A stretch of 64,000 bases of DNA from an uncultured Candidatus Saccharibacteria bacterium. Its GTDB lineage: Bacteria; Patescibacteriota; Minisyncoccia; Phycocordibacterales; JACOZG01. The notes below the pieces were generated by a model. The model searched no databases, was not told where the DNA came from, and saw only the letters and a program-made list of their open reading frames with translations. Location: assembly GCA_964360815.1 (NCBI GenBank), contig CAYHYA010000002.1, positions 1,371 to 65,370 of the forward strand, written 5' to 3'. Below, piece after piece: positions 39,465-64,000 of this stretch; position 1 is the stretch's first letter; every line of letters begins with the position of its first letter. The translations under genes were made by a program, and so were the position numbers.

Positions 39465-39995
39465 TTACAGCTCACCCGTAAATGCTTTGCTCAAGATCGA
39501 CTTCTTAAGTTCTTCCAAATCCGCCAGCTTCTGCTCGTATATTTCTTCTAGTTTTTTTGTTTCTGTTGAAAGGGCATCCAGCTTTTTCACAATCCGCTTT
39601 TGTTCGGATAGAATCGGAATATCGACCTCAATCGAATAGACCTCATTTCTATTCAATCCAGGCTTTACCCCTTTTGCTAATCTAGGTAGCTCCAGTGTTA
39701 TTAATAAGTCGTATAGAAATTTTAAATCGTATTTCCTTTCATCAAAGGTTACAAAATACGTGACATCAAGAGGCCAGAATTTTTCTTCCGTCAAATTTAA
39801 TTCGCCAGCGGAACCTTTACGACCAACTATTATGCTTGGCTTATTATAAAAATAGTCATTTGATCTTGTTTTCTCTCCATTGGCGCCATAGACAGGATAT
39901 TTTCCGCCCATGATTCGTTTTGATTTTGGTAATGGTTTCCCGTATTCCAACTTCAGAACATCACCAAGTTTTTTTGTTTGCCACTCAGTTTTCAT
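39465..39995 (-). CDS. hsdS: Type I restriction-modification specificity subunit, half-size (single target-recognition domain)
   Basis: MKTEWQTKKLGDVLKLEYGKPLPK typical HsdS TRD start, followed by a conserved coiled-coil region; about 176 aa. ORF-track start (40085) overlaps the OLD-like gene, so the internal ATG at 39995 was chosen. Confidence 0.7.
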   Translation of the reverse strand: MKTEWQTKKLGDVLKLEYGKPLPKSKRIMGGKYPVYGANGEKTRSNDYFYNKPSIIVGRKGSAGELNLTEEKFWPLDVTYFVTFDERKYDLKFLYDLLITLELPRLAKGVKPGLNRNEVYSIEVDIPILSEQKRIVKKLDALSTETKKLEEIYEQKLADLEELKKSILSKAFTGEL

Positions 39996-43398: not shown

Positions 43399-44337
43399 TC
43401 ATGGTAAATACTTCACTCGATTTAATTTGTGACCGGCAAAATCGGTGGCGTAATGCATTTGACCATTTCGGTCGGAAAGATAAAACCAGTACGGCGTTTC
43501 AATAGGATTCAAGGCGGCCTCGATGGCCGCAAGTCCGGGATTGCCTATCGGCCCAATCGGTAAGCCGCGATAGCGATAGGTGTTGTAGGGCGAAGAAGTA
43601 GCCAGGTCTTTCAAACTAACTTCAAAAGTGTTTTTACCAATGATGTACGGGAAAACGGCGTCAACCTGAAGGGGCATACCGGCGTCTAGCCGCTTCCACA
43701 AAATGCCAGCGATCGTTTGCCGCACCTCGCTTGTGGCGGCCTCTTTTTCAAGCAGAGAGGCCATAATGATAATCTGTTCAAGAGTTCGACCAGAGTCGGC
43801 AATCACCGGCGCCAAATGTTTGGTCGAATTTTTAAAGTTTTTCTGTAAACGTTCGAGGATCTTCTCTGGCGACAAGGTTGGAAGAAAAAAATAAGTATCC
43901 GGAAAAAGATAGCCCTCGTTTTCTTCACCGAGAACGATGAAATTCACCAAATCAAAGTTCGGTATTGCTTGAGCGATAAGCTGGGCCATTTCTCGAACAG
44001 TTATTCCCTCCGGCAAGGTCACCTTGACCAACGACTGTCCGTAGTGACCACGAGTTAGGCGGCCGGCCAATCGCCAAACGTTAATCGGTCGGTCGAAAAA
44101 ATAGTCACCCGCCACAACAACATCCTCTCGACCGAATTCGAGCGCCAAAGCCAAACGGAAAATGGTTGGCCACTTGATTAAATTATCGTTGGCCAAAAGT
44201 TTTGCCACCGCCATCACCGACTGGCCGTCAGCAATGCTAAAAATTTTTCCGGTCGGAAACTTGGTCGGCGGAGCCGATAAACCAATCCCGAGAACCAGCA
44301 CCGCCGAAATTAAATAAATCAATCGCCGTCGGTTCAT
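43399..44337 (-). CDS. mltG: Endolytic murein transglycosylase MltG (YceG family)
   Basis: N-terminal TM, YceG-like domain with SSPYNTYRYRGLPIGPIGNPG signature. Confidence 0.85.
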   Translation of the reverse strand: MNRRRLIYLISAVLVLGIGLSAPPTKFPTGKIFSIADGQSVMAVAKLLANDNLIKWPTIFRLALALEFGREDVVVAGDYFFDRPINVWRLAGRLTRGHYGQSLVKVTLPEGITVREMAQLIAQAIPNFDLVNFIVLGEENEGYLFPDTYFFLPTLSPEKILERLQKNFKNSTKHLAPVIADSGRTLEQIIIMASLLEKEAATSEVRQTIAGILWKRLDAGMPLQVDAVFPYIIGKNTFEVSLKDLATSSPYNTYRYRGLPIGPIGNPGLAAIEAALNPIETPYWFYLSDRNGQMHYATDFAGHKLNRVKYLP

Positions 44338-45591: not shown

Positions 45592-46623
45592 TCAGGCGGC
45601 TAGATAGCGACCCTGTTTGTCTTGTCGAAAGTGCCGCGGATTTTTTAAATTGACCAAAATTGTGTTGGGTTTAACGTAACGCTCCTTAAGCACGCTTGAG
45701 AGAATGTCTTTTTCCGTCAACGGACCGTGCTCAAGCAAAATGTTTCGGATCACATCACGCACCACCCCCGGGCGATAGCCCCATTCGGTGAGAGCGTACA
45801 TCCCCCGACCAACCAAAACGAAACGACGATCTTTAATTAGTTCATTATGACAAGTTGCCGGATTAGCCGAACGGCTAAACAGATCAGTAATCGCCTTGGC
45901 GACTTCCATGAAATGCATCGGTGAGCCGTGCTTGCGCAAGACCAGGAAAGCGTAGTCGCGCACGCCACGAACCCGAACGTTTGACGAACGGGCCAGTCCC
46001 CACTCCCCAACCGGATTCAACCCGAGATGTTTGGAGATAAAAAGCCAACGGCGAGCTTGGTCTGGAGCAACCGCTCGCCGGACTTCAGCCCCGCTCGCGC
46101 CGAGCAACCGCTCAACCATCTCCGGTTCGGAAAGTAAATCATCTTCGCTTAAACTGGCGCAAACCTGGCGCAGTGATTCTTGAACTTGTTCCGCCTGTTT
46201 TTCGTCAATCGTCCAACGATGATGAAATTCGTCGTTCTCTTTTAGTTTAGTGAACTCGCTACCGAGAACCAGAAGAAAGTGGATGTTATTTTGATTGGTC
46301 CGATTGTCGTCGAGATGCTTCAAAAATTCTTGTTCGTGGGCCACCCCGCCATAGTTATACAGGGCTTCTCGCAATTCGGAGAAAGTGGTTTCGGCGGCAA
46401 CGAACTCGGCCGAACGACGAATCGCTCGAATCGAGAAATCCTCGATCTGGCGAACCCGTTCACGGGTAATGCCATACTTTTTACCAATGGCGTCGAGGGT
46501 TAAACGTTCTTCGGTTTCGAGGCCAAACCGTCGTTTTAAAATATCCTGGGCGCGTTCAGGTAGGGATGATAGCAGGGCCCTCGCCACGGCCTTGGGTTTG
46601 AATGAAATAGCATCTTTGATCAT
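45592..46623 (-). CDS. Sigma-70 region-4 (HTH) domain protein, probable transcription regulator
   Basis: LTLDAIGKKYGITRERVRQIEDFSIRAIRR is a textbook sigma70 region 4.2 HTH; rest of protein unrelated to sigma region 2. Confidence 0.55.
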   Translation of the reverse strand: MIKDAISFKPKAVARALLSSLPERAQDILKRRFGLETEERLTLDAIGKKYGITRERVRQIEDFSIRAIRRSAEFVAAETTFSELREALYNYGGVAHEQEFLKHLDDNRTNQNNIHFLLVLGSEFTKLKENDEFHHRWTIDEKQAEQVQESLRQVCASLSEDDLLSEPEMVERLLGASGAEVRRAVAPDQARRWLFISKHLGLNPVGEWGLARSSNVRVRGVRDYAFLVLRKHGSPMHFMEVAKAITDLFSRSANPATCHNELIKDRRFVLVGRGMYALTEWGYRPGVVRDVIRNILLEHGPLTEKDILSSVLKERYVKPNTILVNLKNPRHFRQDKQGRYLAA

Positions 46624-50182: not shown

Positions 50183-52116
50183 TCACCTTAATTTGGTGTA
50201 CACATTTACATTTGTCAGATTGGTGTCGGCGGTGGTGTATTTGGTTAGATAACTTTCATAACGTGGATCGGCGAGACGAGCGTAGCCCGTGCCCCACGGC
50301 ACCTGATTTTGGAGGAAATCGCCGTTTTCATTAGTTTGCGATGCGGTGGCGGGATTAACTCCGACTACCGTCACGTCGGCGAGAATACTCCCGTCAACAG
50401 ATTTTACTTTACCGGCGACCGATCCATTGGTATAAACACTAGCAACGTCACTCACCTTAACCCTGGAGATGCCCCCGCCGCTGAAAAAATAAGTGTTGCC
50501 AGACTGATCAGAGGTGCCGAGCGTGGCTTCGTAAACAACGTTGTTCACAAGACCCCCGACCGTGGCGCTTGAGGTTGTGGTTGTGGCACTCACATTTGCC
50601 CCCGACCAACTACTACTACCTTCAAGCCGCCACATGAGCACAATTTTATTAAGATTGGGGTCAAACTTAATTGGCCAGCGCCAGGTAATCGCTGGGGCAC
50701 CGGCACTGGAGACATTCTTGTAACCGACATAATAAAGCGGCAAGCCGGGATGATGGCTTGGATCAGCCAGGTAAATAAATGCTTCTTCGTAATTTGAGTT
50801 AGCATAAATTACGCCATTTTCTCCCTCAATAAACACTTTGAGGGCGACATCGCCTTGGAAATTTCTCGTGTTACTTATCCCTAACGCCAGATCAACGGTC
50901 GAACCGGCATTAACGACGATTTGATTCTGTTCAAAATCAAACGAGGCCAGATGATAATCATCAATAATGAGATGTAGGGCCCCGCGATCAATGGCCACCG
51001 TTCCCGGATTGACCAGGCGGACATTAAAAGTGCTGACCGCTCCCGTTTGCAAACTAGAAGTTGGGGTAATGTCGGTGATAAGCAACTCGTTTGCGCCAAG
51101 ACCAACCGAGAGCGCGGTGACAACTTTGGCCGTAAGATAAACGTTATCATCAAAGCTTCCATTCTTTTTTTGTTTGTCCTCGAAGTAGGTGATGGTTTCC
51201 GCTGGATAAATCGGATTCGCCGTGGCGGCTTTGATCGCGTGGTGGGCCAGCACGGTGTCTAAAAGATTGTTACCCCAAGTGCCGTTTGGTTTCTGGGTGT
51301 TGATTAAAGAAGTCACGGCTGGATCAAGCGTGTCGTCCACGGCAATTTTACCGAGCAGGCGATGCTTCCACGGAAGCAGGGCCTCGATAACCTCACTGGT
51401 TACCGGCAACATGCTCGCGCCGTCTGCCAACACACTCCAGCCGTGGCCGGGTCGTTCCATATTGATGAGATAATGCAAACCGAGCGAAGCGGTGACATTT
51501 GGTTCCTCGCCTCGTCTCGATAATTGGCGGCGTGAAGGGCCTGGAGTGCCTTGGCTGTGGTTAATGGGTCGGATTCATAATCACGATTGAAGCTGAAGCC
51601 GCCCGTCGCCTCGTCGAGACCGCGAGCTAAATCTTCGGCGGTTGAAGTACTAACACCGGCTCGCGCCCACACTGCCAACTGCTCGGCCAAATAATCATTA
51701 TTTTCAGGAATATAATATTCCAACCAGTCGAGACCGCGATCGAGAACCGCGGCGGTGACGCCGCGCGCTTGCAAGGCCTCGAGCGCGGCGACGGTGGTAA
51801 TAAACTTAGTGGGCACATTACTCCCCCATGAGCCATCTTTGTTTTGTTCACCAACAAGATATTCAACCGCCCGATCGATAATCACCGAAACCGCCGGAAC
51901 GCCCCGCGCCCGACTAGACGGCTTGATCTCTATCACCTTAAGACCCAAGATTTTGGCCACCGGCTCGGCCGGTGTTAGTTTGGCTGGATTTAATACCTGG
52001 GCAGTGTTGGCATTTATCACGACCGGTTCAACCATCGCGCTCTCGGCAATGGCGAGTGGCAAATAAAAAAACCAAGCGGCAACTCCCACCACCCAAAACC
52101 CAGTGAGTATCTTCAT
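50183..52116 (-). pseudogene. Secreted QW-repeat (prenyltransferase/terpene-cyclase-like alpha-toroid) protein with C-terminal beta domain, interrupted by a frameshift near 51470-51490
   Basis: Two ORFs (51400..52116 with signal peptide and EQNKDGSWGSN repeat; 50183..51478 with QKPNGTWGNN and KQKKNGSFDDN repeats) overlap by 79 nt in different frames. The downstream frame stays open upstream of its TTG. Same repeat family on both sides implies one gene. Confidence 0.55.
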
Positions 52117-52726: not shown

Positions 52727-54421
52727 TTAATTTGGGGTATTTGGGAGTATTTCTATAGAATTAATAACCTTGTCGGTATCCTGCCATCTCTCCAAAGTAT
52801 TTTGATAAAGCAATCCTTTTATTTCTGCTTTCTTTTCGTCGGGCATAGAGATTAGGAAATAATTAGAATCGTCAAAAAGTTTTTCTATTTTCAGGGTTTT
52901 TGAATTATTGATCGGGATAAAAACGGTTTCTTGGCCACAACCCTCGACTCCAGAGTAAAAAGTGACGCCAGCTTGAGATTTAAATTTTTCTTCATCAATT
53001 AGTGCGTCCTTTTCCATGGTCTTAATCGCTTCTCTTAAACCGGTGTCGAGATACTCTATGGAGAGATAGAAATCCGTTAATTCACCTAGTGGGATAACGG
53101 GTCCGGGGCCCTCCCCACAATATCTAGGGACAATGAGAGAAATAGAATGTTTTAGTTCTATTAATTTATCCGATTCTGTAATTGAAATTGCCGTAGATGG
53201 ATATGAAAATTTAATTCCAAGATTTTTGCTTTCATATGTTGGCCATGCCTGGGAATATATTAGTTCTCCTCCTTCATAATTTCCGTCACACTCCCATTTG
53301 GCAGTATACTTCTGCAATATTAATTGACGATCTATGAGTTTGTATACTCCAGTTGTCCAGCAATCTCCCAACCCCCGACCCTTCGTTGCAGACACAAAAA
53401 CATCTTTTACGGAATCATAAAACATTTCAACAACTCTATAGTTAAAAATTGACTCACCTTCTCTGTTTATTTCTTCGACGAGAAGAGGGGTATAAGTTTT
53501 TCCGTCATCTAATACGACCATGTAAGAGTATTGATAGGCGTGGGCCATACAGAACAAGATCAACACCTTGGTGCCATCGGGCATGATTTTCTCTGGTTTA
53601 ATCGCCTGAACAAATGATCGAAACGGTAATTCGTCAGGAATCCCCGTCATTTCATATGGATAACACTCTTCTTTGTACTGAGCCGCTAACGGTGCCCACC
53701 TCGGATCAGAAGCGGCCAAACTTAAATCTTCTTTAAAATTTTTTTCCTTTTCTTGTTGTTCCAATTGGTTTTCAGAAATTAAAGTATCGTCTATGAGTAT
53801 ATAATTGTGGTTAGATAGGTAATCTTTTTCTTTACGAGACATGGTGATAATTCCTTCTTTATATTCCACAAAATCAATGTCTGACCAGTTATCTTCATTG
53901 TTAATAAATTTAATTGGCACCAGTAACCCCCCTACTTCACGTAGAATTTGATAGGAACTAAAACCTTTTTCATTCTTCGTTCGAATTAACGCTTCGCTGA
54001 CCCCATCTCCGCTTATATCTTTTTGAAAAATATTTGTTTCAAAAGCTTCGGTACTGTTTTGAACCTTCTGTGCCGACTTGATCACAATGACAGGTTCGGG
54101 ATGTAAGCCAATCGAAAAAAATTGATAGATACTTCTTTCTTTTGGTTTGTTTTCAACGACTAGAAAGAATGGGGTATTGCCGATCTTTATTTCTTTCGCA
54201 TAGAAGTCGTACTCGAACGATTCATGATTTCCGAAACTATAATGATAATTACCAGGGAGGGTTTTTATTCTAAAATAAGGATAGATGGCTCTCAGGATTG
54301 GTGGGGCAGAATATTTTAATATCGCTTCCCTGTAACCAATGACCACAACGACCACAACCAAAACCGTCCCTAAAATTATAATTAAACGCTTCTTGTATTT
54401 TGAATTCTGACTTCTCAACAT
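52727..54421 (-). CDS. Membrane-anchored FG-GAP-like repeat protein, paralog 1 (long form)
   Basis: N-terminal TM (LIIILGTVLVVVVVVIGY) and DISGDGVSEALI Ca-binding-type DxxxDGxxE repeat. Shares family with four downstream paralogs. Start set at internal ATG after the upstream gene stop. Confidence 0.55.
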   Translation of the reverse strand: MLRSQNSKYKKRLIIILGTVLVVVVVVIGYREAILKYSAPPILRAIYPYFRIKTLPGNYHYSFGNHESFEYDFYAKEIKIGNTPFFLVVENKPKERSIYQFFSIGLHPEPVIVIKSAQKVQNSTEAFETNIFQKDISGDGVSEALIRTKNEKGFSSYQILREVGGLLVPIKFINNEDNWSDIDFVEYKEGIITMSRKEKDYLSNHNYILIDDTLISENQLEQQEKEKNFKEDLSLAASDPRWAPLAAQYKEECYPYEMTGIPDELPFRSFVQAIKPEKIMPDGTKVLILFCMAHAYQYSYMVVLDDGKTYTPLLVEEINREGESIFNYRVVEMFYDSVKDVFVSATKGRGLGDCWTTGVYKLIDRQLILQKYTAKWECDGNYEGGELIYSQAWPTYESKNLGIKFSYPSTAISITESDKLIELKHSISLIVPRYCGEGPGPVIPLGELTDFYLSIEYLDTGLREAIKTMEKDALIDEEKFKSQAGVTFYSGVEGCGQETVFIPINNSKTLKIEKLFDDSNYFLISMPDEKKAEIKGLLYQNTLERWQDTDKVINSIEILPNTPN

Positions 54422-54431
54422 CTTCTTATTT

Positions 54432-55316
54432 TTATTTGAACAACTCCTTAAATTCTGGTGATGTTTCTGCCACCTCTTTCCAGAGGTAGTATTCGACACC
54501 GCTCCATTTATAGATTTGAGTGTATCGCCCCTTACCCACCATGTCTGGAGAGGTTGGAATAAGACCGAGGTTTTCTAAAGCGGGATCAATGATTATGACT
54601 TCCAAGATTCCATCACCATCTTTATCTTGAAACAAATCAGGAAATTTATCATAGCGTTTCATTAAAAAATAAAATCTATTCCATGAAGTTACATCTGAAT
54701 CTGTGTGCTCAAAATTAAAATCTCTGGTTGAATCTTTTTTCTTACCGACAATCGGATTTAGCACTTTGTATGTTTTGATTTTTGGATCAAGAGATATTAT
54801 CCAAAACTCTTTATCGTTGTATTCTTCCTCTATGTTTCTATACAGAGCACCTCCCTCCGAATATATGACCAACTCTTTTAGTCCATCGTTGTTTATATCC
54901 CTGACCTCTTTTATAAGTTGTTCCGGCTTCCATAAAAAAGGAGAGTTTATTTCCCAATAGATATAGTACTGGTTATTGGTTAGGTGTTTTAACATAATAA
55001 TTCCGCCTTTTTCTCCATAATCATCGGCCTTATAAACTCCAATGGTTACTCTTGTAGGTGGATTATTGTCGTCCAAAAGATATGTTTGGTTCTTTTCATA
55101 AAAATCACGTTTGGTTTCGGTCATACTTTTTAAGAGACGGTATCTATTACTACGTTTCTCTGGTGGTATATTTGAAAGATCAACAATTCTATTAGTAAAA
55201 GTATTAACTTCGACCGGTGTCAGTGTCTTGTTGTTTATTTGGTATATAAATATCCCGACTATTATAATCAAAACTGTCGCTTGGGCTATTTCGTATATTA
55301 ATTTTTTATTTTTCAT
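54432..55316 (-). CDS. Membrane-anchored FG-GAP-like repeat protein, paralog 2 (carries conserved YYLWKEVAETSPEFKELFK tail)
   Basis: N-terminal TM. RDINNDGLKELVIY and DKDGDGILEVII repeats. 3'-terminal 57 nt near-identical to paralogs 4 and 5. Confidence 0.6.
   Translation of the reverse strand: MKNKKLIYEIAQATVLIIIVGIFIYQINNKTLTPVEVNTFTNRIVDLSNIPPEKRSNRYRLLKSMTETKRDFYEKNQTYLLDDNNPPTRVTIGVYKADDYGEKGGIIMLKHLTNNQYYIYWEINSPFLWKPEQLIKEVRDINNDGLKELVIYSEGGALYRNIEEEYNDKEFWIISLDPKIKTYKVLNPIVGKKKDSTRDFNFEHTDSDVTSWNRFYFLMKRYDKFPDLFQDKDGDGILEVIIIDPALENLGLIPTSPDMVGKGRYTQIYKWSGVEYYLWKEVAETSPEFKELFK
54439..54495. repeat. 57-nt conserved segment (3' end of FG-GAP paralog 2), copy 1 of 3
   Basis: aacaactccttaaattctggtgatgtttctgccacctctttccagaggtagtattcg; 3 variable positions among copies at 54439, 56418 and 59741. 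Confidence 0.8.
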
Positions 55317-55324
55317 TTTCGGTA

Positions 55325-55595
55325 TCACTGGTCCTGTTCATGATATGTCCCGCATACATTATTTGCATACTGAATCGTTGATGGAGCTCTGCCATTATAA
55401 TAACGAACAGCCCACCACAAACGATCTTTATCATTATCTAATAATTGAGTTACCCCTTGCCACAACAAAGTATTGTTATTATAGTCCTGTTTTAAAGCTT
55501 CGACCCAATTACTGCCGTAGGTGCTGATAAAATATTGGTTATTGTACGGTTCAACCTTAATAAAATTCCGATGAACGCATAGATTTTCTTGCTGT
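55325..55595 (-). pseudogene. Start-less remnant of a lysozyme-like (SLT/GH23-like) C-terminal cassette
   Basis: Open frame beginning immediately after the stop of paralog 3, with no start codon. Translation ...QYFISTYGSNW...RYYNGRAPSTIQYANNVCGTYH aligns with the ...SSYGLMQ...LLQYNRDPQYAIDVYKIY end of the orphan cassette at 57195..58166. Confidence 0.4.
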
Positions 55596-55610
55596 GTGAG
55601 CTATGCATGG

Positions 55611-56390
55611 TTATGGAGGATACAACACGTTGCCAACCGAATACTGATCTTCCCCTGTGGATGGAGTGAGGGAATCTTTTTGTTCTCTCCAAAGAAAATA
55701 TTTTGAACCATCCCATTTATAGGCCCGATAGACTTTCTTATTGATCACATCAAGCCGATTTTCTGCTAATCCAAGAAAAATGTTGTAGGGTTGAACAATT
55801 TCTGGAATACCGTCTTTGTCCACATCAAAAATTTTCGTCATGCTTTCCTCGCCACCAAAACCTACATAGTTGGATTCTTTTCCGTCTGGTCTTATGTGTA
55901 TGAGATATGGGGTAATCATATCAAAACCGTCACTATTCCATTTGTAGATATACAGGGTTTCGCCCTTGTCATTATCCCATAGAGCAAGGATCTCGTTTAC
56001 ACCATCACCAGTAAGATCAGACACGCCCACCTTTGATCTTGGGTCAGAAATATCTTCTGTGCTTTCCCATATAAGTTTTATTTTTTCAAATTCTTTTTCC
56101 TCAAAAACCAATATTCCTTGCTGGTGGTGGGTAATAATAAGATTCTTTGCCCCAGTTTTAGTTAAAGAAAATCTCTGGTAATCTTTCCCTTTCGTAGCAA
56201 TCACGTGGTCAATCCGATTTTGTCTGTCTATTGGGTAATATAGTTCAGGTTCTCCCACCACGGGGGTGAACATGGCCGTAGAGGTTGCTGTGTCTTGCAC
56301 GTCTGGTTTTCTTGAATCAAACAAAAAATATAGACCAGCACCCAAGAGAATTATTATTCCCCACGATACGGCTATTTTGATTTTTGACAT
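55611..56390 (-). CDS. Membrane-anchored FG-GAP-like repeat protein, paralog 3
   Basis: N-terminal TM. SDLTGDGVNEILAL and FDVDKDGIPEIVQ repeats. Diverged C-terminus KYFLWREQKDS... Confidence 0.55.
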   Translation of the reverse strand: MSKIKIAVSWGIIILLGAGLYFLFDSRKPDVQDTATSTAMFTPVVGEPELYYPIDRQNRIDHVIATKGKDYQRFSLTKTGAKNLIITHHQQGILVFEEKEFEKIKLIWESTEDISDPRSKVGVSDLTGDGVNEILALWDNDKGETLYIYKWNSDGFDMITPYLIHIRPDGKESNYVGFGGEESMTKIFDVDKDGIPEIVQPYNIFLGLAENRLDVINKKVYRAYKWDGSKYFLWREQKDSLTPSTGEDQYSVGNVLYPP

Positions 56391-56410
56391 GTTATTTTTT
56401 TACTCAATAA

Positions 56411-57211
56411 TCACCTAAACAACTCCTTAAATTCTGGTGATGTTTCTGCCACCTCTTTCCAGAGATAGTATTCGGAGCCGTTGAATTTGAAAACACTGGC
56501 GGACTGATGAATATCTTCGTAATCACCACTTTCATTTAGTGTAAGAACCTCTAAATTGCCATCATTTTCAAGATCAATGAATTTAACATCGGTGCCTGCC
56601 ATCCAACGATCGGATTCAGTCTCGGCCCCTGGATTTGGATTTATTAATTTAAATTCATCGTTATTCCATTGATAAATCCAGAATGTGGGAACAAGACGCA
56701 CTCCTTGCCACGCAATAAGCACGAGTTCATCAATTCCATCATTATTAATATCTTTGAATTCAGTGGTGCCCTTCATTGCTGAAAAATATTCTTTGCTTTC
56801 CCAAATAATTGAAAAGTGGTTATCCTTTTTTATAAAAACCAGTATGCCTCCTCTGTATGTTCCGCGTTCATCTTCGGGATGATTAGAATCTTGTCTCGAC
56901 TTATTTATGACCGTATCAGGACTATTCGGCATATAATAAACTGCGTACTTTTTTTCGCCATTTAATGTCGGGACTTTACTTGAAGAAAAAGCTGAATTAT
57001 ATTCAGAAAGGGGAACGGATTCTATGTAATTTAGCATATACTGTCTGGGGTGTTGCCAGTAGGACTTCTCGTCAAAACTGACCGACCAATGATTATTTGG
57101 AATTTCGGTTATCTCCTGTTTTACTTTAGTTAAGTAAAAAATCACCGCGATTATACAAAAAACAATAATAACAGCGGTCATACTTTTTCTCTTGTTAATC
57201 ATATATGCCAC
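56411..57211 (-). CDS. Membrane-anchored FG-GAP-like repeat protein, paralog 4 (conserved tail ...EYYLWKEVAETSPEFKELFR)
   Basis: N-terminal TM. FKDINNDGIDELVL and FIDLENDGNLEVLT repeats. Conserved 57-nt 3' end. Confidence 0.6.
   Translation of the reverse strand: MAYMINKRKSMTAVIIVFCIIAVIFYLTKVKQEITEIPNNHWSVSFDEKSYWQHPRQYMLNYIESVPLSEYNSAFSSSKVPTLNGEKKYAVYYMPNSPDTVINKSRQDSNHPEDERGTYRGGILVFIKKDNHFSIIWESKEYFSAMKGTTEFKDINNDGIDELVLIAWQGVRLVPTFWIYQWNNDEFKLINPNPGAETESDRWMAGTDVKFIDLENDGNLEVLTLNESGDYEDIHQSASVFKFNGSEYYLWKEVAETSPEFKELFR
56418..56474. repeat. 57-nt conserved segment, copy 2 (3' end of FG-GAP paralog 4)
   Basis: Near-identical to copies at 54439 and 59741, including synonymous positions. 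Confidence 0.8.
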
Positions 57212-58477
57212 TTAAATAAATTTTATAAACATCAATTGCATACTGCGGGTCACGATTGTACTGGAGGAGTGCCTCTTTTATTTTTTGTTCGTACGACCAG
57301 GCAGGATGTTGATTTTCAGCGACTCCATAGTAAAAGTTCAAGGTATGTACCCCCACTTTAATGTTTACGGATGGAATAAACAAATCTTCGACGGGTCTAG
57401 CCGGACTGGAGACGTCCTCGAAACCATTCCATCTAGCGGTCTCATAGAGTATTTGCATCAAACCATAACTAGAAGCCAGAATTAACTGGGCGGTATAGTT
57501 TAGATTGGGAGGTAAAGAGGTCCAATCGCGATTTGGGTTAGCCTTAACTATCTCTTGGGCGGTAGGATTAGAATTTGTGTTCGCAATATTGAGTTTAGGG
57601 AACGCATCTTCACGATGCCTCATAAAAATACTTGTGCTCATGTCCGACACTTGATCCCCATTTATAAAAGTTTCTCCTGGGACATTATGCCCTCCGAGTC
57701 GCCAGTGTTTTTCCGGAAACCCATGCAATCCACGCCAACCTTGCTCTTGTGGCAGCGTAGAATCAAGTTTTGAATACCAATTGTAATCAGTATGAATTTC
57801 ATATCTTATGGCTTTTGGTTTGAAATTACTCTCTTTTTTGATCACCGCCTTTATCAGGGCGGCGGGAATATCTTTTGTCGCGTTATCCATGATAATACCA
57901 TCAACATCATTGTTATTTCCCCTATCTCCCAGCGTGGTCTCTTCTATTCGCACCCCGACGCTAGCGTTCGTGCCGTAACCGGACCGAAGTAAGATGGGGC
58001 CGGTGACTTGGTCGAGCGGCGGGCGATCCGTTCTCACAATACCAGTTTCGTCCCACTCATGAATCGTGGTACCGGCGAGAGTGGAAGTATAGCGCGCGTG
58101 CCAATTTATAGATTGTCCGCGGATAAATGACTGATTTTTATTCGGCAAAATAATGTTGGCTATCAAATTCGGAAGAAGATGCTGCCGCCAAAAATTCTCC
58201 CAACCGTTCGGCCATTCTTCGACCGTATAGCCACCGTTCAGACCCTCACCAATAGCGTACGTCGCATCACCACCGGCAAAGTCAATGGCGAGATAAAATA
58301 AACCTTGCCAGTCGTTATAAGTGAGCGGCGCCGTCGGCGTGTAAATAATTTTACCGGCGGCGACGGCGTTATGGAAAGCGGTTTTGAGGGCTGATGAAAT
58401 AACCAGAGAATCGATCTCGCTATCATTCGCGGCGGTAATCTTTTTAGAATCGCCAAAAAGTTTTTCTATTCCGATTT
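57195..58477 (-). other. Promoter-less, start-less orphan C-terminal cassette: 503-bp segment identical to the large gene followed by an alternative lysozyme-like (SLT/GH23-like) C-terminal domain
   Basis: Frame is open from the TAA at about 58478 through 57195 with no ATG/GTG in the first about 110 codons. Residues ...KITAANDSEIDS...GTNASVGVRI are nucleotide-identical to 61309..61811. Downstream domain has IKAVIKKESNFKPKA (ES motif), SSYGLMQILYETA and YNRDPQY motifs. Confidence 0.6.
57944..58446. repeat. 503-bp direct repeat, copy B (identical to 61309..61811)
   Basis: Base-by-base comparison in the window. Identity starts at ...cgcaccccgacgctagcg and ends at ...cggcggtaatcttttta in both copies (offset 3365 bp). 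Confidence 0.85.
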
Positions 58478-59005
58478 AAATTTTTTGATCAAGTTTTCCT
58501 TTATGGCATATAGTTCATTACTTTTCTCTCTATCTTTCTCGGTATTATTGTCACAAAGTTCTTCATTAACTATCTGATTGTTGTTTCTGTAGGAAAAAGA
58601 GACAAAACTTGTGCAATTGGGATGGCTTATATCCCATATCTTCATTGCTATCTCATGTTCTGTTGTTATAGCAGAAAACGGCTTAATAGAGTATTCGAAG
58701 CTTAGTATAAATTCACTATTCACCATATCAAAAACATACTCATGTGATATGAGTGGTGGGTTAGGGTTAAAATCGTGAACAATTAAAAGACAAGTATTAA
58801 GTTTCGGACTATACCTGACAATTTTGTACTCCTTAGTGTTGGATAAACCTTTTTTATCATATAATTCATTGCACAAAATTGCCTGACGTATTAAATTGTT
58901 TTTTGGCAAGTAAAAAATAAAATAATAACTTAGGCCAATACCACTTAAGAAAATTCCCAGTACCATTAGAGAATAAACAAACTTTTTTATATTTAAATAA
59001 TTCAT
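58466..59005 (-). CDS. Hypothetical small membrane protein, very AT-rich
   Basis: 179 aa, N-terminal TM (LMVLGIFLSGIGLSYYFIFYL); about 30 % GC. Confidence 0.4.
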   Translation of the reverse strand: MNYLNIKKFVYSLMVLGIFLSGIGLSYYFIFYLPKNNLIRQAILCNELYDKKGLSNTKEYKIVRYSPKLNTCLLIVHDFNPNPPLISHEYVFDMVNSEFILSFEYSIKPFSAITTEHEIAMKIWDISHPNCTSFVSFSYRNNNQIVNEELCDNNTEKDREKSNELYAIKENLIKKFKSE

Positions 59006-59038
59006 GTTTAGGTTGGGTAATTAGTGAAAAACATGATC

Positions 59039-59710
59039 TCAATCCAATAATGACTTGATGTTTTCAATAGCAGTTCTCACAACTATATCTCTAAACTCAT
59101 CATAGGTTATTTTGAGGCTGAGAGCAATTTGGCGCTTTTTGTATGGTTTTCCTAAATATCCGAAGGTCATAAAACTCCAACTATTATAACCTTGATTCTC
59201 AAATTCGTTTTTCTGTTTTTTATCAAGGAAGCTAAAACTAAAATAATCTTCTCCGTGAACTGCTTTATTTCTTACTTCATAAAGTATCTTAATAATTGAA
59301 GAAAAAAGGAGTGTATGATGTCCTGGTTTTGTTAATGCTCTTTGGAAATCACACATCATTATTTTCTTGTCTTCAGGGAGAACAAGATCAAAAAATTTCT
59401 TTAGAGATTCAGAGGACTTAATCTTATTAATTCCAATCCGTTGTTTAGCAATAGATTCCGCTAAAGCCACCAAAAAAATAATTTTAAGAGCAGGTCTGTT
59501 GTTTCTCACTTTTTCCTGATCATCAGCTATTTGTGTATACCATTGAGCACAAAGAAGCATTCTACGAGTTTTTAATTTCCTTAAGCAATTTTTTATAAAA
59601 TCAGTCCTTTTGAATACTTCAGGAAAAACTATCTCTAAAAAAGTATTTAGTTCTGGATCCTCTAAAATGTCCTGTTTAATTTGGTTATCTAGTTTTTTCC
59701 AATCATTCAT
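59039..59710 (-). CDS. Hypothetical cytoplasmic protein with Rx4H (HEPN-like) motif, very AT-rich
   Basis: 223 aa. EVRNKAVHGEDY matches the HEPN Rx4-6H signature; otherwise no motif. Confidence 0.35.
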   Translation of the reverse strand: MNDWKKLDNQIKQDILEDPELNTFLEIVFPEVFKRTDFIKNCLRKLKTRRMLLCAQWYTQIADDQEKVRNNRPALKIIFLVALAESIAKQRIGINKIKSSESLKKFFDLVLPEDKKIMMCDFQRALTKPGHHTLLFSSIIKILYEVRNKAVHGEDYFSFSFLDKKQKNEFENQGYNSWSFMTFGYLGKPYKKRQIALSLKITYDEFRDIVVRTAIENIKSLLD

Positions 59711-59733
59711 TTTGTTTTTAAAAAATAATTAAA

Positions 59734-60489
59734 CTACTTAAACAACTCCTTAAATTCTGGCGATGTTTCTGCCACCTCTTTCCAAAGATAGTATTCGGTG
59801 CCGTTGAATTTATAAATAAACACCAGTGCTTTTTCGTTTTCATCTCTATAACCAACAGCAATTTCCTGGATTTTGTCATCATCAATATCTCTAATATAAG
59901 CAAGTTCGGCATCGCCAACCAAAATAGTCCATCCGTATTTAATTTTTATTGAAGATACTGTTGATTCTTGAATTTCAATTGGTGTAATAATTTTGAATTT
60001 ATCACTCGTAAATTTATAGACATAGAAGGCACCACTTCTTCCTGTCACTCCTAGATCTCCGGCCCAAACAATTTCATCAATTCCATCGTTGTCAATGTCT
60101 AAAAAACTCACATATGGACTATCGATGTAATCTTCACTTTCCCAGAATAAGACGGGTTGGTTGTTGACAAGCTTAAATACAAGAATTCCACCAAACATCC
60201 GTCCAGGTTTATTGTTTAATGAACCATCAAGTCGGTATGTTTCGCTGTATCCAGTTAATAAGTATGTTTCGCCATTAATTTTTGTTGTTCTTAATTTGTC
60301 AGGATGTTCCATCGCATCCTGTATCGCTATCTCTCTATTACTTAATTCTTCTTTTTCTATTATTGGTTGGGGAATATTGTCGGGATCCTTAATGGTTGGA
60401 GAGACTTGTGAGTGATTAAAAAATATCAAAACTAATAAAATTATAATTCCGCCGGCGTAAATAATATTTTTGAGTGTTAGATATTTCAT
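59734..60489 (-). CDS. Membrane-anchored FG-GAP-like repeat protein, paralog 5 (conserved tail ...EYYLWKEVAETSPEFKELFK), immediately downstream of the large effector-like gene
   Basis: N-terminal TM. FLDIDNDGIDEIVW and IRDIDDDKIQEIAV repeats. Conserved 57-nt 3' end. Start set at internal ATG (MKYLTLKN...) to avoid overlap with the upstream gene. Confidence 0.6.
   Translation of the reverse strand: MKYLTLKNIIYAGGIIILLVLIFFNHSQVSPTIKDPDNIPQPIIEKEELSNREIAIQDAMEHPDKLRTTKINGETYLLTGYSETYRLDGSLNNKPGRMFGGILVFKLVNNQPVLFWESEDYIDSPYVSFLDIDNDGIDEIVWAGDLGVTGRSGAFYVYKFTSDKFKIITPIEIQESTVSSIKIKYGWTILVGDAELAYIRDIDDDKIQEIAVGYRDENEKALVFIYKFNGTEYYLWKEVAETSPEFKELFK
59741..59797. repeat. 57-nt conserved segment, copy 3 (3' end of FG-GAP paralog 5)
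   Basis: Near-identical to copies at 54439 and 56418. Confidence 0.8.
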
Positions 60490-60493
60490 ATGA

Positions 60494-63400
60494 TTATTTA
60501 TAATTACTCGTATAAATTCGACATACATCTGGTCTATACAGTGGGCCAGAATTATAACGCCTCAAGGCTTCACTCCACCCAGCACAATTATCATTGGGGA
60601 CGAGCTGTCCACCACTCCTAATAAATTTACTTTTCAAAATAGCGGCCGCCGCCTCTACACCCAACTCGACATCATCAACAAGACTGTGGGGACTATGATA
60701 GTCTTTCATAACCAAATTACCTTCTGGATCCTCCACTTCGGTTGCTTCGGCATACATCACATGACCCAATCCATAACTGGAAGAGATCAAGAATTGAGGT
60801 GTGAAATTACCGGTAAAGCCCGCAGGGTTACCAAAAGCTGGCCAACCTTGGCTCGTACGTCCGTTATCAATATCGCGGTCGTTCGCATAAAGTTCGGCTA
60901 CAGTAATGGGAATTTTATCATGGGGTGTTCGATCCGTCATTATAATTCCTCGATATTGCCAGCCCCCGTTTCTTGTATTCTTAAGAGTGGTGCGATAATC
61001 TCTCGGTAAAGAACTCACTCGTGGTCCATCCAAAAGGGTTGACCCTTGGGAGTTTTTCCCAGCCAGAACGTAGTAAGAAAATGGTAAATTATCCATACCA
61101 ATTGATGGATTGGGACCTGAAAAATTTTCATAATCCCTCTTGGGTTCATAACGAGAGGTTCTGGGATCAAATATTCTATCTGTTTGCGTTTCTTTGTGAA
61201 TAATTGCCTTAAGTATTCCAGGGGGAATACCATATTTGTTAGCATTATTAGTAATTTCTACATCATACATGTTGTATACATTTCCAATCTTCATCTCTTC
61301 ATCCTCAACTATCCGCACCCCGACGCTAGCGTTCGTGCCGTAACCGGACCGAAGTAAGATGGGGCCGGTGACTTGGTCGAGCGGCGGGCGATCCGTTCTC
61401 ACAATACCAGTTTCGTCCCACTCATGAATCGTGGTACCGGCGAGAGTGGAAGTATAGCGCGCGTGCCAATTTATAGATTGTCCGCGGATAAATGACTGAT
61501 TTTTATTCGGCAAAATAATGTTGGCTATCAAATTCGGAAGAAGATGCTGCCGCCAAAAATTCTCCCAACCGTTCGGCCATTCTTCGACCGTATAGCCACC
61601 GTTCAGACCCTCACCAATAGCGTACGTCGCATCACCACCGGCAAAGTCAATGGCGAGATAAAATAAACCTTGCCAGTCGTTATAAGTGAGCGGCGCCGTC
61701 GGCGTGTAAATAATTTTACCGGCGGCGACGGCGTTATGGAAAGCGGTTTTGAGGGCTGATGAAATAACCAGAGAATCGATCTCGCTATCATTCGCGGCGG
61801 TAATCTTTTTAAGCGTTACGCCCGGAAACTCGCCGGCCGCGACCAGCTTCAAGCCCTTCACCGTGGCCACCGCTTCAACGTCAAAATCATTTTCAAAAAT
61901 ATCGGACTCGTCTTGGGAGGCCTGAAGACCGAACAACGCCGCAAATTCTTCAAGATGAGCGTTGGCCTCTTCGTCGAAACGATTGAAATATCGCACCTTG
62001 GCAAAAGAATCTATGCGTAAACCTTGCCAGTCGAAAGAATAGGGTTCGCTCTCATCAAACACCACTTCGAGCCCGTTAGACACCGTGGCTCGAGTGGCGG
62101 TGTGGGTGAAAGCGCCACCGATGATGTCGGTGAGTTCCTGTTGCGTTTCGGCTAGTCGGTATAAATAATCCACGGCCGTCCGATAAAGTTTCTGATCTCT
62201 CACCAAGCTCGTACTGCCGCCGTCTTCGGCCGATCTTTGATCGGGCGATACCACCCGGTCAGTATTGAAGGCGAGCGCGTCCGTACTGCCGGCAATAATT
62301 TTCTGCTCGTGCGTGGCGGGAATTTCCGTCCTCATGTCACCCTCTTCATCTCGAACCGGAACGGCAAACTCTATCGAATACGACTCCGCGCGGCCGAGCG
62401 TGGAGGCGGCGCGGCCGAGAGCCACGACTCGACCGTTGATTTTCAGGGTTGGTTTAACCTCAACTAGCGCGAGTGGCACAACGTCATAGATGGTGTCAAA
62501 ACTATCAATGATCGTCTGGTCTTCAGGTGTCGCCGGATCGTGAGTCACTAATATCTCGTTATCAGCTAGATCAGAAACATAGGCCCGGTGATCAAGGATT
62601 ACATTTTCTTGCTCGTTTTTGATGGTGAATCTGATCGAATGACGGAAGGGAGTCGGAACGTAGGCGTCAACACCTAAAACGGTAACGATTTTATACGGCA
62701 ACGAGCCGGGAATAAAATCAAGATTTTGCAATTTAGGATATGAACGCGTCAGTGCTTCGGTATAGGTTAAGTCAGGATAATACTCCGGGCGAGCCGAGGT
62801 GAGAGATAGTTCTACTTCTCTTTTGAATGCTTCTAGTGGTTCCAGATCGCCGTAGTCGCCCGCAAGATAACGATCAAAAAATTCTTCCGTGATAAAACCC
62901 TGGCCCTTCAGGTGTTCGACGACATCAATAAAACGCTCGTAATAATATGCATTGATGCTCGGCTCTAGTGGCACCCACTGGGCGATGCCGCCGTCATTCG
63001 GATCAGCTCCGCGACTGTAGCCGTAGGGTATATGCGCCTCGACATAAGTATGTTCAACCACGAAAAAATACGGTTCGTCATTGAGAGTGTAAAGGGTGTA
63101 GGGAATTTTTTCGAGTGACAGAATCCGAGCGGCGGCAATGGGCGAGTCAACGCCCAACCAATCAGTCATCGTTCTCAAGTTAACTTTGATGTCGGCGCGA
63201 CGATAACGAGCCGGGACCCCGCTCGAGCGAAGCATGGCCACCAGCAACGAGGCTTTGTCCATGTCGTTGCCCGCCCGCTCGAGCAGGGTGGCATGAGCCC
63301 CCTTCTTTGATCCAAAATACGGCACGTGGCTAACTTCGTTTCGGACAAAATTGAGCATTGCAAGCGGATCGTGGTTAAGCTCGTCAGCTTTGTTTTGAAT

Positions 63401-63898
63401 GGCTGGCGTAAATTTGATCTCATCGCCTTCCCCGAGATAATTGAGCGGATCACCGACCGAATCGATTGGCCGAGCTGATGAATTTACCATGCTTTCTGTT
63501 TCTTGAAACACGGCCACCGGCCTCGTGTTGATTCGGCCGGAAAAAGTTTCGACTCTAAACGGCTCCTGTTCAGTGAGCCGGCCGATGGTCGGTTGAACCG
63601 GAACTTTTTTCTGACGGGCGCTTGGCTGGCGCGCTTCATACGCATTAAGCCGATCAAGGGCCACCGACGGCAGATGGCTAGCCAAAAGATGTTGCCTAAC
63701 CGCCGCGAGTTGTGCTGCCTTAGAGAGGTTGGGATTTTTCTTGAATTTGGCATTGCCACCGACAGTCTGTGAAGATGAAATATTTTTAATTACCGGGTTC
63801 TCAATCAGGGGCAAGGCCTCCATCACGGGGGCCACCGGTGTTAGAGCAAACGAAAAAAGCAAAAGGGCTGACGGAATCTTTATGTCTAATCCCCTCAT
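60494..63898 (-). CDS. Large secreted multidomain protein: transglutaminase-like fold (Cys replaced) plus C-terminal lysozyme-like (SLT/GH23-like) domain, putative peptidoglycan-targeting effector
   Basis: Probable signal peptide MRGLDIKIPSALLLFSFALTPVAPVMEA (start chosen at 63898; an upstream in-frame ATG at 63988 exists near the window edge). ATLLERAGNDMDKASLLVAMLRSSGVPARY resembles the transglutaminase-like core with Cys replaced by Asp. C-terminal IPPGILKAIIHKETQ...SSSYGLGHVMYAEA...YNSGPLY parallels SLT motifs. Confidence 0.6.
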   Translation of the reverse strand: MRGLDIKIPSALLLFSFALTPVAPVMEALPLIENPVIKNISSSQTVGGNAKFKKNPNLSKAAQLAAVRQHLLASHLPSVALDRLNAYEARQPSARQKKVPVQPTIGRLTEQEPFRVETFSGRINTRPVAVFQETESMVNSSARPIDSVGDPLNYLGEGDEIKFTPAIQNKADELNHDPLAMLNFVRNEVSHVPYFGSKKGAHATLLERAGNDMDKASLLVAMLRSSGVPARYRRADIKVNLRTMTDWLGVDSPIAAARILSLEKIPYTLYTLNDEPYFFVVEHTYVEAHIPYGYSRGADPNDGGIAQWVPLEPSINAYYYERFIDVVEHLKGQGFITEEFFDRYLAGDYGDLEPLEAFKREVELSLTSARPEYYPDLTYTEALTRSYPKLQNLDFIPGSLPYKIVTVLGVDAYVPTPFRHSIRFTIKNEQENVILDHRAYVSDLADNEILVTHDPATPEDQTIIDSFDTIYDVVPLALVEVKPTLKINGRVVALGRAASTLGRAESYSIEFAVPVRDEEGDMRTEIPATHEQKIIAGSTDALAFNTDRVVSPDQRSAEDGGSTSLVRDQKLYRTAVDYLYRLAETQQELTDIIGGAFTHTATRATVSNGLEVVFDESEPYSFDWQGLRIDSFAKVRYFNRFDEEANAHLEEFAALFGLQASQDESDIFENDFDVEAVATVKGLKLVAAGEFPGVTLKKITAANDSEIDSLVISSALKTAFHNAVAAGKIIYTPTAPLTYNDWQGLFYLAIDFAGGDATYAIGEGLNGGYTVEEWPNGWENFWRQHLLPNLIANIILPNKNQSFIRGQSINWHARYTSTLAGTTIHEWDETGIVRTDRPPLDQVTGPILLRSGYGTNASVGVRIVEDEEMKIGNVYNMYDVEITNNANKYGIPPGILKAIIHKETQTDRIFDPRTSRYEPKRDYENFSGPNPSIGMDNLPFSYYVLAGKNSQGSTLLDGPRVSSLPRDYRTTLKNTRNGGWQYRGIIMTDRTPHDKIPITVAELYANDRDIDNGRTSQGWPAFGNPAGFTGNFTPQFLISSSYGLGHVMYAEATEVEDPEGNLVMKDYHSPHSLVDDVELGVEAAAAILKSKFIRSGGQLVPNDNCAGWSEALRRYNSGPLYRPDVCRIYTSNYK
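61309..61811. repeat. 503-bp direct repeat, copy A (inside the large gene, at the trunk/C-terminal-domain junction)
   Basis: Identical to 57944..58446. Confidence 0.85.
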
Positions 63899-64000
63899 TC
63901 GTGTTCGCTTTGGATGCGGCCCCAGAGGGTGCGGAGTTCGTTGATCGCCATTCCCCCCTCGTCTTTGTTTGGCGGTTTGCCGTGCCACTCATAACGCCGT

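Follow-up and report, generated by a model that had tools for sequence, protein, structure and literature searches.

The closest described parallels to the locus analysed here come from the polymorphic toxin systems. The locus lies at positions 52727 to 63988 of a 64,000-nucleotide (nt) stretch of a Candidatus Saccharibacteria contig (the window), and comprises a large gene for a predicted secreted protein with a lytic-transglycosylase-like (SLT) C-terminus, an orphan cassette with a different SLT-type C-terminus, a degenerate remnant of another, and four genes for membrane-anchored FG-GAP-like proteins. We consider it probable, with good confidence, that this is a Sec-dependent polymorphic toxin–immunity locus of a Patescibacterium. 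In the MafB/MafI systems, C-terminal cassettes, including silent ones without a start codon, are each followed by at least one immunity gene (PMC4287609). The window has the same general plan, namely a toxin with a (here predicted) Sec signal peptide, a conserved N-terminal region, a variable C-terminus and a (here candidate) immunity gene directly downstream, and the family to which it belongs shares with MafB/MafI the arrays of alternative C-terminal cassettes and the co-variation of C-terminus and immunity gene (between strains in MafB). By contrast with MafB, the main protein of the window lacks the DUF1020 MafB N-terminal domain in a Pfam scan and has instead a trunk of about 770 amino acids (aa) with a dead transglutaminase fold; its C-termini are predicted to attack the cell wall, whereas those of MafB have cytoplasmic targets; and its host is a monoderm-type Patescibacterium.

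In the CdiA-CT/CdiI and Rhs-CT/RhsI systems, as set out in PMC4927057 (with Koskiniemi et al. 2014 as cited there), orphan pairs lie downstream of the main gene in the same orientation and keep homology to it for recombination, and arrays arise from displacement by incoming modules. Displaced pairs of C-terminus and immunity gene, a common orientation and a retained homologous stretch are likewise found in the window. Unlike CdiA and Rhs, however, the window has neither the TPS domain and FHA repeats nor an RHS/YD trunk, CdiB, VENN or PxxxxDPxGL, and the boundary is instead formed by YAIGEGLNGGYTVE followed by an immunoglobulin (Ig)-like linker. To our knowledge, no additional arm of homology at the immunity gene's 3' end has been described for CdiA or Rhs.

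The trunk also has a precedent. In an in silico catalogue, Zhang et al. (2012) listed Sec-dependent toxins whose N-terminal 'inactive transglutaminase' domain always precedes RHS repeats, and suggested that it serves in surface anchoring (PMC3482391). That class and the window both have a transglutaminase-like domain that has lost its catalytic residue, placed just after the signal peptide (here predicted); in contrast to the RHS repeats that follow it in the 2012 class, the window family carries a conserved module of about 620 aa. The two are linked by a Myxococcus protein (P0031) that combines PF01841 with an Rhs-associated domain. The text of PMC3482391 contains neither 'FG-GAP' nor 'lytic transglycosylase', and mentions neither Patescibacteria nor SLT C-termini.

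For the partner proteins, the parallel is XAC2610, a periplasmic immunity protein against a lysozyme-like Xanthomonas effector, whose propeller-like topology is reported to be common to Tsi1 and PliI as well (PMC10933484). The likeness of the window's partners to XAC2609/XAC2610, Tse1/Tsi1 and PliI holds at the level of fold class only: no sequence relationship to XAC2610 was found, and the best profile matches in the Protein Data Bank (PDB; E about 0.04) were PL11 lyases and integrins. Effectors of the XAC2609 and Tse1 type, unlike the window protein, are delivered by type IV or type VI secretion systems in diderms and are not built from a trunk plus cassette. A full-text literature search, reaching only a minority of subscription journals, gave no description of the trunk family or of Patescibacterial polymorphic toxin arrays, bar a passing note of an RHS-type Saccharibacterium toxin. 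An earlier note on this DNA, made from the sequence alone, had held that no characterized system combines these domains. This was only partly right, as inactive-transglutaminase toxins had been catalogued in 2012 and propeller-like immunity proteins are known. Judged from sequence, what is known is the polymorphic-toxin grammar, and what is new is the absence of RHS repeats, the Patescibacterial host and the partial-propeller immunity candidates. The features of the locus are as follows.

60494..63898, minus strand: main gene, 1,134 aa from ATG 63898; the open reading frame (ORF) reaches GTG 63988 (1,164 aa; ORF listing)
63203..63394, minus strand: transglutaminase-like core in which Asp takes the place of the catalytic Cys (GNDMDKASLL); the Pfam match covers aa 199-262 in the 1,164-aa ORF
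61309..61811, minus strand: trunk-end repeat copy A, coding for KKITAANDSE...GEGLNGGYTVE and the Ig-like linker to ...GVRI; GC content 0.51, trunk-like
60494..61308, minus strand: main C-terminal domain, SLT type A; lytic-transglycosylase/g-type-lysozyme-like fold, with the invariant Glu in K..I..E[ST]
59734..60489, minus strand: FG-GAP-like protein 1, membrane-anchored; 251 aa from ATG 60489 (264-aa ORF)
58444..58470, minus strand: 27-nt junction scar, copying 26 of 27 nt of 52863-52889 (BLAST E 1.6e-5)
57944..58446, minus strand: trunk-end repeat copy B, forming the orphan cassette's 5' homology arm (BLAST; spanned by contig L007)
57195..57943, minus strand: C-terminal domain of the orphan, SLT type B, continuing the frame of copy B; PF01464, 41.7 bits
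56411..57181, minus strand: FG-GAP-like protein 2, 256 aa from ATG 57181 (266-aa ORF); FG-GAP_3, 30.2 bits
55611..56390, minus strand: FG-GAP-like protein 3, 259 aa, without its own C-terminal cassette and without the shared tail
55325..55600, minus strand: SLT C-terminus remnant, P0005-like type C, degenerate 3' part (profile match and frame translation)
54432..55328, minus strand: FG-GAP-like protein 4, 298 aa, likely start ATG 55316; bears the shared tail
59736..59816, minus strand: shared 3' tail copy 1, coding for ...YYLWKEVAETSPEFKELFK (repeat family D2, BLAST, sequence comparison)
56413..56493, minus strand: shared 3' tail copy 2 (repeat listing, BLAST, sequence comparison)
54434..54514, minus strand: shared 3' tail copy 3 (repeat listing, BLAST, sequence comparison)

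The large gene, the orphan cassette and the partner proteins

Every gene from 50 to 64 kb of the window lies on the minus strand in the ORF listing. At 1,134 aa, with a PF01841 domain in which Asp replaces the catalytic Cys and an SLT-type C-terminus, the large protein is as the earlier note had described it. A hydrophobic segment (aa 10-29) follows a basic start, and the same pattern occurs in homologues, as judged from hydrophobicity; no obvious ribosome-binding site precedes ATG 63898 in the roughly 100 nt of upstream sequence in scope. The transglutaminase-like domain (PF01841, 32.6 bits) is the only family that Pfam and NCBIfam scans found in the main protein. Specifically, its GNDMDKA aligns to GVCRDFA of PDB 3isr, which places Asp at the catalytic Cys position, and the alignment of 31 close homologues retains the substitution (N350, D351 and D353 being invariant or nearly so), as does the consensus of 38 wider relatives (GNDYDQ). 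By its sequence, the trunk is thus best described as a catalytically dead transglutaminase-like module. No RHS/YD profile matches were found in the main protein or among the family matches reported for 69 relatives scanned, and neither a TPS domain nor FHA repeats in the main protein, nor a CdiB-like gene among its annotated neighbours, was evident. The module of about 620 aa is widespread, with 937 representative clusters at E <= 1e-30 and at least 556 loci in GTDB species genomes. In the sample searched, the close trunk subfamily is confined to Patescibacteria, and relatives with about 30% identity occur in Zixibacteria, Geobacter, Verrucomicrobiota, Nitrospirota, Bacillota and others.

The orphan C-terminus scores 41.7 bits against Pfam SLT (cut-off 21.3), and the main C-terminus alone gives a weak SLT match (14.2 bits). 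The two are homologous (tblastn E 2.7e-19), with an identity measured at 27-29%, below the 35% or so of the earlier estimate. Across 15 aligned C-termini that diverge by 27-50%, E40, Q172, S178-Y179-G180 and Y252-N253 are invariant; in terms of motifs, the Glu of K..I..E[ST], an RYE motif, Q....SSYG and YN do not vary. This agrees with the catalytic Glu (E-S/T motif) and the G-L-x-Q and A-Y-N-x-G type motifs downstream of it in the SLT/GH23 superfamily. A profile built from both C-terminus types matches Escherichia coli MltC (E 3.4e-5) and aligns the Glu motif to 'AIMQTES' of MltC, with its catalytic 'TES'. The SLT C-termini are atypical in an insertion of about 130 residues between the catalytic motifs, and PDB searches with the single sequence of either C-terminus returned nothing significant; it was the profile and the fold search that were informative. 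Because of the SLT match, the mutual homology, the invariant motifs and the MltC profile match, both C-termini are assigned as predicted GH23-type domains that cleave glycan strands, and the lysozyme-like identity that the earlier note had proposed to check with profiles was thereby borne out.

Trunk sequence is re-used by the orphan, as had been claimed: 61309-61811 and 57944-58446 are 99.8% identical over 503 bp (BLAST E = 0), and the single mismatch (61313 G, 57948 A) lies 5 nt from the 3' edge, leaving 498 bp of perfect identity. The orphan frame is open from 58475 to 57195, and within it the trunk peptide (KKITAANDSE...GEGLNGGYTVEE...GVRI) reads straight into the different, lysozyme-like C-terminus. 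The frame begins 20 nt past the stop of the preceding 179-aa gene and holds no ATG, GTG or TTG ahead of TTG 58166, after which no hydrophobic N-terminus follows; the description of the orphan as start-less therefore stands. Expression by read-through or frameshift from the 179-aa gene was considered and rejected by eye: a -1 shift would be needed within 9 nt, no canonical slippery heptamer is present, and the orphan frame has a stop at 58476-58478. A promoter and terminator scan gave 37 sites against 28.7 +/- 5.3 expected, a background level that is uninformative on orphan transcription. L007, a contig of an independent assembly built from another replicate taken at this groundwater well, runs at 99.9% identity from the 179-aa gene through the whole repeat and the orphan C-terminus to the two FG-GAP-like genes that follow; the orphan is therefore not an assembly artefact.

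Further downstream, the degenerate remnant inferred in the earlier note is supported by an SLT-C-terminus hidden Markov model (HMM) that matches 55334-55498 (E 3e-5). Its frame, 55328-55600 with a stop codon at 55325-55327, ends at the start of the 298-aa gene, and the last 28 residues of its end (...DRLWWAVRYYNGRAPSTIQYANNVCGTYHEQDQ) are 57% identical to the C-terminus of the homologue P0005.

Each of these C-terminal cassettes is followed by a gene for an FG-GAP-like protein, in agreement with the earlier reading; ATG 60489 of protein 1 lies only 4 nt past the stop of the main gene. All four FG-GAP-like proteins are mutually homologous and have an N-terminal hydrophobic anchor. Two of them exceed the Pfam FG-GAP_3 cut-off of 26.9 bits (protein 1, 27.3; protein 2, 30.2), protein 3 falls below it (24.7) and protein 4 has no match, its membership resting on paralogue comparisons (E 1e-14 to 1e-17) and on a family HMM (2e-68) in whose seed alignment it is included. 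The proteins have two D-x-D-x-D-G-x-x-E loops, and the AlphaFold2 model of protein 2 shows a membrane helix and a partial beta-propeller rather than a closed seven-bladed one. Foldseek and sequence profiles returned generic propeller matches only, and a narrower FG-GAP-like alignment found no confirmed relatives in a scan of the genome collection.

Three of the four paralogues also share a 3' tail, 81 nt long and 84-93% identical between copies (98% in its 57-nt core), and the fourth (55611-56390) lacks it, which is the distribution the earlier note had reported. The 26 residues ahead of ATG 54421 in the listed ORF of the next gene, for a 564-aa protein, are the shared tail translated in a different frame. 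A partner gene from an unrelated sample (L098), 51% identical, ends in the tail peptide too, EVAE[T/S]SPEFKELF[K/R]; it differs from the window by eight synonymous and two conservative changes, so selection acts on the peptide itself. The closest outside relatives of the tail-bearing paralogues (in loci L013 and L028) end differently. The tail has thus probably spread inside the genome by recombination, and it would mark the 3' edge of the cassette.

Base composition follows the same partition. The GC content is 30-42% across the island from 52.7 to 61.3 kb, against 47-52% in the trunk and most other DNA of the window; by part, the trunk and repeat have 0.51, the C-termini 0.42 and the partner genes 0.30-0.40. 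In Rhs, a fall in GC content at the C-terminus is a classical trait.

Variation of C-termini and partner genes among relatives

The polymorphic-toxin reading of the earlier note held up when relatives were compared: the trunk is conserved, the C-termini vary, the next gene co-varies with the C-terminus and orphans recur. A word-index search recovered 31 homologues of the main protein (28-52% trunk identity, covering 52-99% of the query), which are Patescibacterial wherever the source is named, except for the distant Myxococcus protein P0031. The homologues share the trunk up to the conserved boundary motif and the Ig-like linker, and then diverge. A Pfam census of the C-termini of 31 close relatives pooled from two protein searches gave SLT in six, Amidase_2 in four, and Hydrolase_2, a barnase-type Ribonuclease (25.3 bits, cut-off 24), a CdiA-CT ribonuclease (RNase) A (RNAse_A_bac, 1.5e-11) and PT-TG (29.1 bits, cut-off 23.5) in one each; more SLT C-termini are detectable with our own profile than the six found by Pfam. 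Wider relatives add Amidase_3 and phospholipase A2-like C-termini.

The gene that follows changes with the C-terminus. Outside the window, nine of nine intact SLT C-termini on this trunk (L001, L012 twice, L013, L017, L022, L028 twice, L098) have a membrane-anchored protein directly after them, and the same pattern holds for a truncated cassette in L010 and for two C-termini on another scaffold in L097. Our FG-GAP-like HMM detects these partners except in L022, whose partner resembles a weakly scoring one in L012. Amidase C-termini are followed by other membrane-anchored proteins, and a further, unassigned class of C-termini (P0013/P0022 type) by a membrane-anchored family homologous to residues 1-215 of the 564-aa protein of the window. 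The RNase C-terminus of P0019 has, 2 nt downstream, a gene for a cytoplasmic SUKH-1 (SMI1/KNR4) protein (26.5 bits, cut-off 25.4); SUKH-1 is the commonest immunity family of polymorphic toxins.

Both intact modules of the window have their nearest counterparts in other loci as pairs. For the main C-terminus and its partner, the nearest pairs are in L013 and L028 (48-59% identity between partners): protein 1 is 48% identical to the gene after P0001, and 59% and 52% to two genes in L028, both loci bearing a type-A C-terminus. The orphan C-terminus and its partner are closest to the truncated cassette of L010, with 61% identity between C-termini and 46% between protein 2 and the gene after that type-B cassette; the orphan C-terminus is also 56% identical to an L097 cassette. 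Proteins 1 and 2 are accordingly candidate cognate immunity proteins for SLT types A and B, respectively. Because protein 3 is 50% identical to the gene after a P0012-type C-terminus in L001, it is a candidate stand-alone (orphan) immunity gene. The pairing of the 298-aa protein 4 with the P0005-like remnant is uncertain, as BLAST did not link it at E < 0.01 to the P0005 partner (L012, 281 aa). Across ten SLT/FG-GAP-like modules, a Mantel test correlates C-terminus with partner (rho 0.73, p 0.0008), and neither of them with the trunk (C-terminus -0.26, partner -0.12). It follows that C-terminus and partner travel as a unit decoupled from the trunk. In L097:1-5640 (JGI metagenome contig Ga0213870_1004479), two SLT/FG-GAP-like units end Ig/FN3-like-rich proteins that lack the transglutaminase-like trunk, and the occurrence of these units on a different protein scaffold indicates that the cassette is common to more than one trunk family.

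At least three further genomes also have orphan cassettes that carry trunk repeats. In L012 (GCA_964367135.1), the main gene and its partner are followed by two short genes that open with 199 bp and 99 bp of the trunk end (100% and 99% identity to the main gene, respectively), one leading into an SLT C-terminus and then an FG-GAP-like gene, the other into an RNase and then a small cytoplasmic protein. In L028 (Candidatus Liptonbacteria, JACQBP010000031.1), an 85-bp trunk repeat precedes a second SLT C-terminus, and three FG-GAP-like genes share a tail (...LWKEEKIKG) unlike that of the window; in L022, a 286-bp trunk repeat lies downstream of the immunity candidate. The L028 orphan (3017-4276, with 7754-7862) has taken the start codon and signal peptide (MKNRSIKIINIITLASILIGGFWPLAATHSALTS) of a downstream large gene through a 181-bp duplication and, with start and leader acquired, may be expressed as a short secreted toxin. 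The downstream large gene itself appears frameshifted just past that leader. In L010, half an SLT C-terminus is fused to the N-terminus of a homologue of the 564-aa protein. The window has a comparable junction, unremarked in the earlier note: the 27-nt scar, which abuts the 5' edge of the orphan repeat and copies in frame the 3' part of the 564-aa gene (IEKLFGDS, compared with IEKLFDDS). Together with the L028 and L010 junctions, the scar points to repeated recombination of the toxin gene with conserved downstream genes.

Genes for large serine recombinases (Resolvase/Recombinase/Zn_ribbon_recom) lie within a few kilobases of the toxin locus at L005:23364-23678, L010:23717-23840 and L014:5521-7158; no recombinase turned up among the annotated genes of the window.

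Weighing the toxin–immunity interpretation

By analogy with the systems above, we infer secretion, toxicity, neutralisation by the FG-GAP-like proteins and cassette switching. The large protein would be exported by Sec and be surface-bound or secreted, its trunk (signal peptide, dead transglutaminase-like module and Ig-like linker) presenting an exchangeable C-terminal toxin. The SLT/GH23 domain would cleave peptidoglycan glycan strands in the exposed wall of neighbouring or host cells, and the most likely function of the FG-GAP-like protein, a membrane-anchored, extracytoplasmic partial beta-propeller, is to bind the cognate SLT domain and block it at the wall of the producer. Since the organism has peptidoglycan-handling genes, as illustrated by an MltG gene at 43399-44337 of the window, such self-protection would be needed. 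The displaced cassettes, namely a start-less SLT C-terminus with 503 bp of trunk and its partner, a stand-alone FG-GAP-like gene, and a decayed C-terminus with its partner, may be retained for immunity against the toxins of relatives. RecA-type recombination across the 503-bp direct repeats could fuse the spare C-terminus to the trunk in frame, deleting 3365 bp. More generally, the cassettes would be low-GC modules that move between trunks, with the trunk repeat as their 5' end and the homogenised tail of the immunity gene as their 3' end.

Several observations weigh against this interpretation. The first FG-GAP-like gene is separated from the orphan by two unrelated genes, for the 223-aa and 179-aa proteins, which interrupt the array and do not figure in the earlier note. 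Recombination across the repeats would delete the current immunity gene, so that a duplication would probably have to come first, as has been suggested for cdi and rhs. No contig joining the full trunk to the orphan C-terminus was found among the replicate contigs or in a metagenome scan that returned the same sample and one unrelated scaffold. Contig L008 starts at 57942 and so breaks at the repeat edge, but this is not evidence of exchange, because short-read assemblers break at any repeat. Apart from the dead transglutaminase fold, the trunk has no known delivery or processing domain in Pfam and NCBIfam scans, although the RNase C-termini of relatives would need to reach a target cytoplasm. 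Finally, the co-variation of C-terminus and partner could reflect linkage in a mobile cassette and not physical interaction.

It is possible, though we would not expect it, that the same architecture serves as a tool with which an epibiont breaches the host wall for attachment or feeding, the FG-GAP-like proteins shielding its own wall and the cassettes fitting different host wall chemistries. Patescibacteria cultured so far are epibionts on other bacteria, the close trunk subfamily is confined to them in our sample, most of the assigned C-termini are peptidoglycan hydrolases (SLT, Amidase_2, Hydrolase_2), and the locus adjoins a conserved large Ig-rich surface protein. Yet conflict between relatives is what RNase C-termini paired with SUKH-type immunity, and orphan immunity genes, typically signal, and a host-directed effector needs no extra array of immunity genes; the two roles are nevertheless compatible. 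A stronger version, in which the trunk family is the main contact weapon with which Patescibacterial epibionts open the host wall and in which a double crossover swaps cassettes, with the trunk-end repeat and the tail as its two dedicated arms, seems to us doubtful. If it were true, a lineage could adjust both its wall-cutting enzyme and its self-protection when it meets a new host or rival, while keeping the rest of the array, and such two-armed exchange would set it apart from CdiA, Rhs and MafB, whose orphans recombine through one arm.

Silent-cassette antigenic variation, which the earlier note had offered as an alternative, is improbable; here gene conversion would alter a surface-exposed C-terminus against host defences or phages, and enzyme activity would be secondary. 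It would account for a start-less, in-frame orphan with 498 bp of perfect identity and a second arm at the 3' tail, and it was raised as a possibility for similar cassettes in the MafB paper (PMC4287609). However, there is only one intact donor cassette; the C-termini are enzymes (by prediction) that keep their catalytic motifs across 27-50% divergence and are replaced by nucleases in relatives; and antigenic variation does not require co-varying partner genes. Still less credible is a housekeeping autolysin with regulatory partners, the downstream copies being decaying duplicates without a role in conflict. SLT enzymes do normally remodel the cell wall, membrane-bound autolysin regulators exist, and the remnant and start-less copy look like pseudogenes; but the catalytic domain of an autolysin would not be swapped for amidases, RNases and PT-TG between close relatives, and the cassette-like GC drops, the inheritance of C-terminus and partner decoupled from the trunk, and the separate MltG of the window all argue otherwise. 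That the repeat and orphan result from mis-joined strain variants can be practically dismissed, since, despite the low coverage of related contigs (2.7-4x) and the break of L008 exactly at the repeat edge, L007 spans the region at 99.9% identity and the same architecture occurs in unrelated assemblies.

Patescibacteria (the Candidate Phyla Radiation) make up a large share of bacterial diversity, and how they attack, feed on and compete around their hosts is little understood. Under the favoured interpretation of a toxin–immunity locus, about 11 kb of a very small genome would be devoted to a predicted secreted wall-cutter with exchangeable tips and a probable bank of antidotes, a design that recurs across several Patescibacterial lineages and yields testable candidates for a weapon and for self-protection. 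The presence of the trunk in hundreds of species of many phyla, with amidase, lytic transglycosylase, phospholipase-like and nuclease tips, points to a large, little-studied class of Sec-dependent polymorphic toxins without RHS repeats. The FG-GAP-like partial propellers, if they are inhibitors, would add a family to the few known protein inhibitors of lytic transglycosylases and lysozyme-type enzymes, and the shared 3' tails in two unrelated genomes suggest how whole toxin–antidote units move.

Neighbouring genes in the window

The remaining genes in and beside the locus are listed below.

59039..59710, minus strand: 223-aa protein without signal peptide or membrane segment; GC 0.31
58466..59005, minus strand: 179-aa protein with an N-terminal membrane anchor (hydrophobic segment aa 12-31)
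52727..54421, minus strand: 564-aa membrane-anchored protein from ATG 54421 (590-aa listed ORF); C-terminal part is DUF1176, 47.2 bits
50183..52116, minus strand: split large surface protein in overlapping 238-aa and 431-aa ORFs (tblastn with L013, L016 and L017 homologues)

The 223-aa and 179-aa genes have the lowest GC content of the island (0.30-0.31), and profile scans of their products (Pfam, NCBIfam, PADLOC) came back empty; none of the related loci compared encodes a homologue. An 'RNKAVH' in the 223-aa protein is a possible HEPN Rx4H motif, but no profile backs HEPN and we do not claim it. The homology of residues 1-215 of the 564-aa protein to the genes after P0013/P0022-type C-termini amounts to about 27-30% identity in L021, L016 and L025.

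Downstream of the toxin locus, a large SQHop-cyclase-like, Ig-rich surface protein is encoded in every Patescibacterial locus with downstream sequence. In the window its two overlapping ORFs match the L013, L016 and L017 homologues with 40-55% identity in frames -2 and -1 (tblastn), with a weak SQHop_cyclase match; a frameshift lies near 51511-51514, and about 180 N-terminal and 220 C-terminal residues are lacking relative to homologues of about 1,030 aa. The gene is either a pseudogene or the product of a sequencing error.

Elsewhere in the window, a low-GC (35-40%) defence island on the minus strand (36130-43259) comprises genes for the R subunit of an EcoAI-type type I restriction system (36130-38457), a RhuM/Fic-domain protein (38463-39446), an S subunit (39465-40085), an AAA ATPase whose N-terminus is weakly similar to retron effectors and RecF (39985-41781), and the M subunit of a type I system (41778-43259). 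Another minus-strand stretch of low GC content (37%; 17605-22161), apparently unconnected with the toxin locus, has genes for a histidine kinase (17605-19311), an ATP-grasp protein of GARS-like type (19327-20658) and an EamA transporter (21253-22161). The minus-strand gene at 45592-46623 encodes a 343-aa protein with the unusual pairing of sigma-70 region 4 (aa 6-73) and a weak match to the RNA polymerase delta subunit (aa 223-281).

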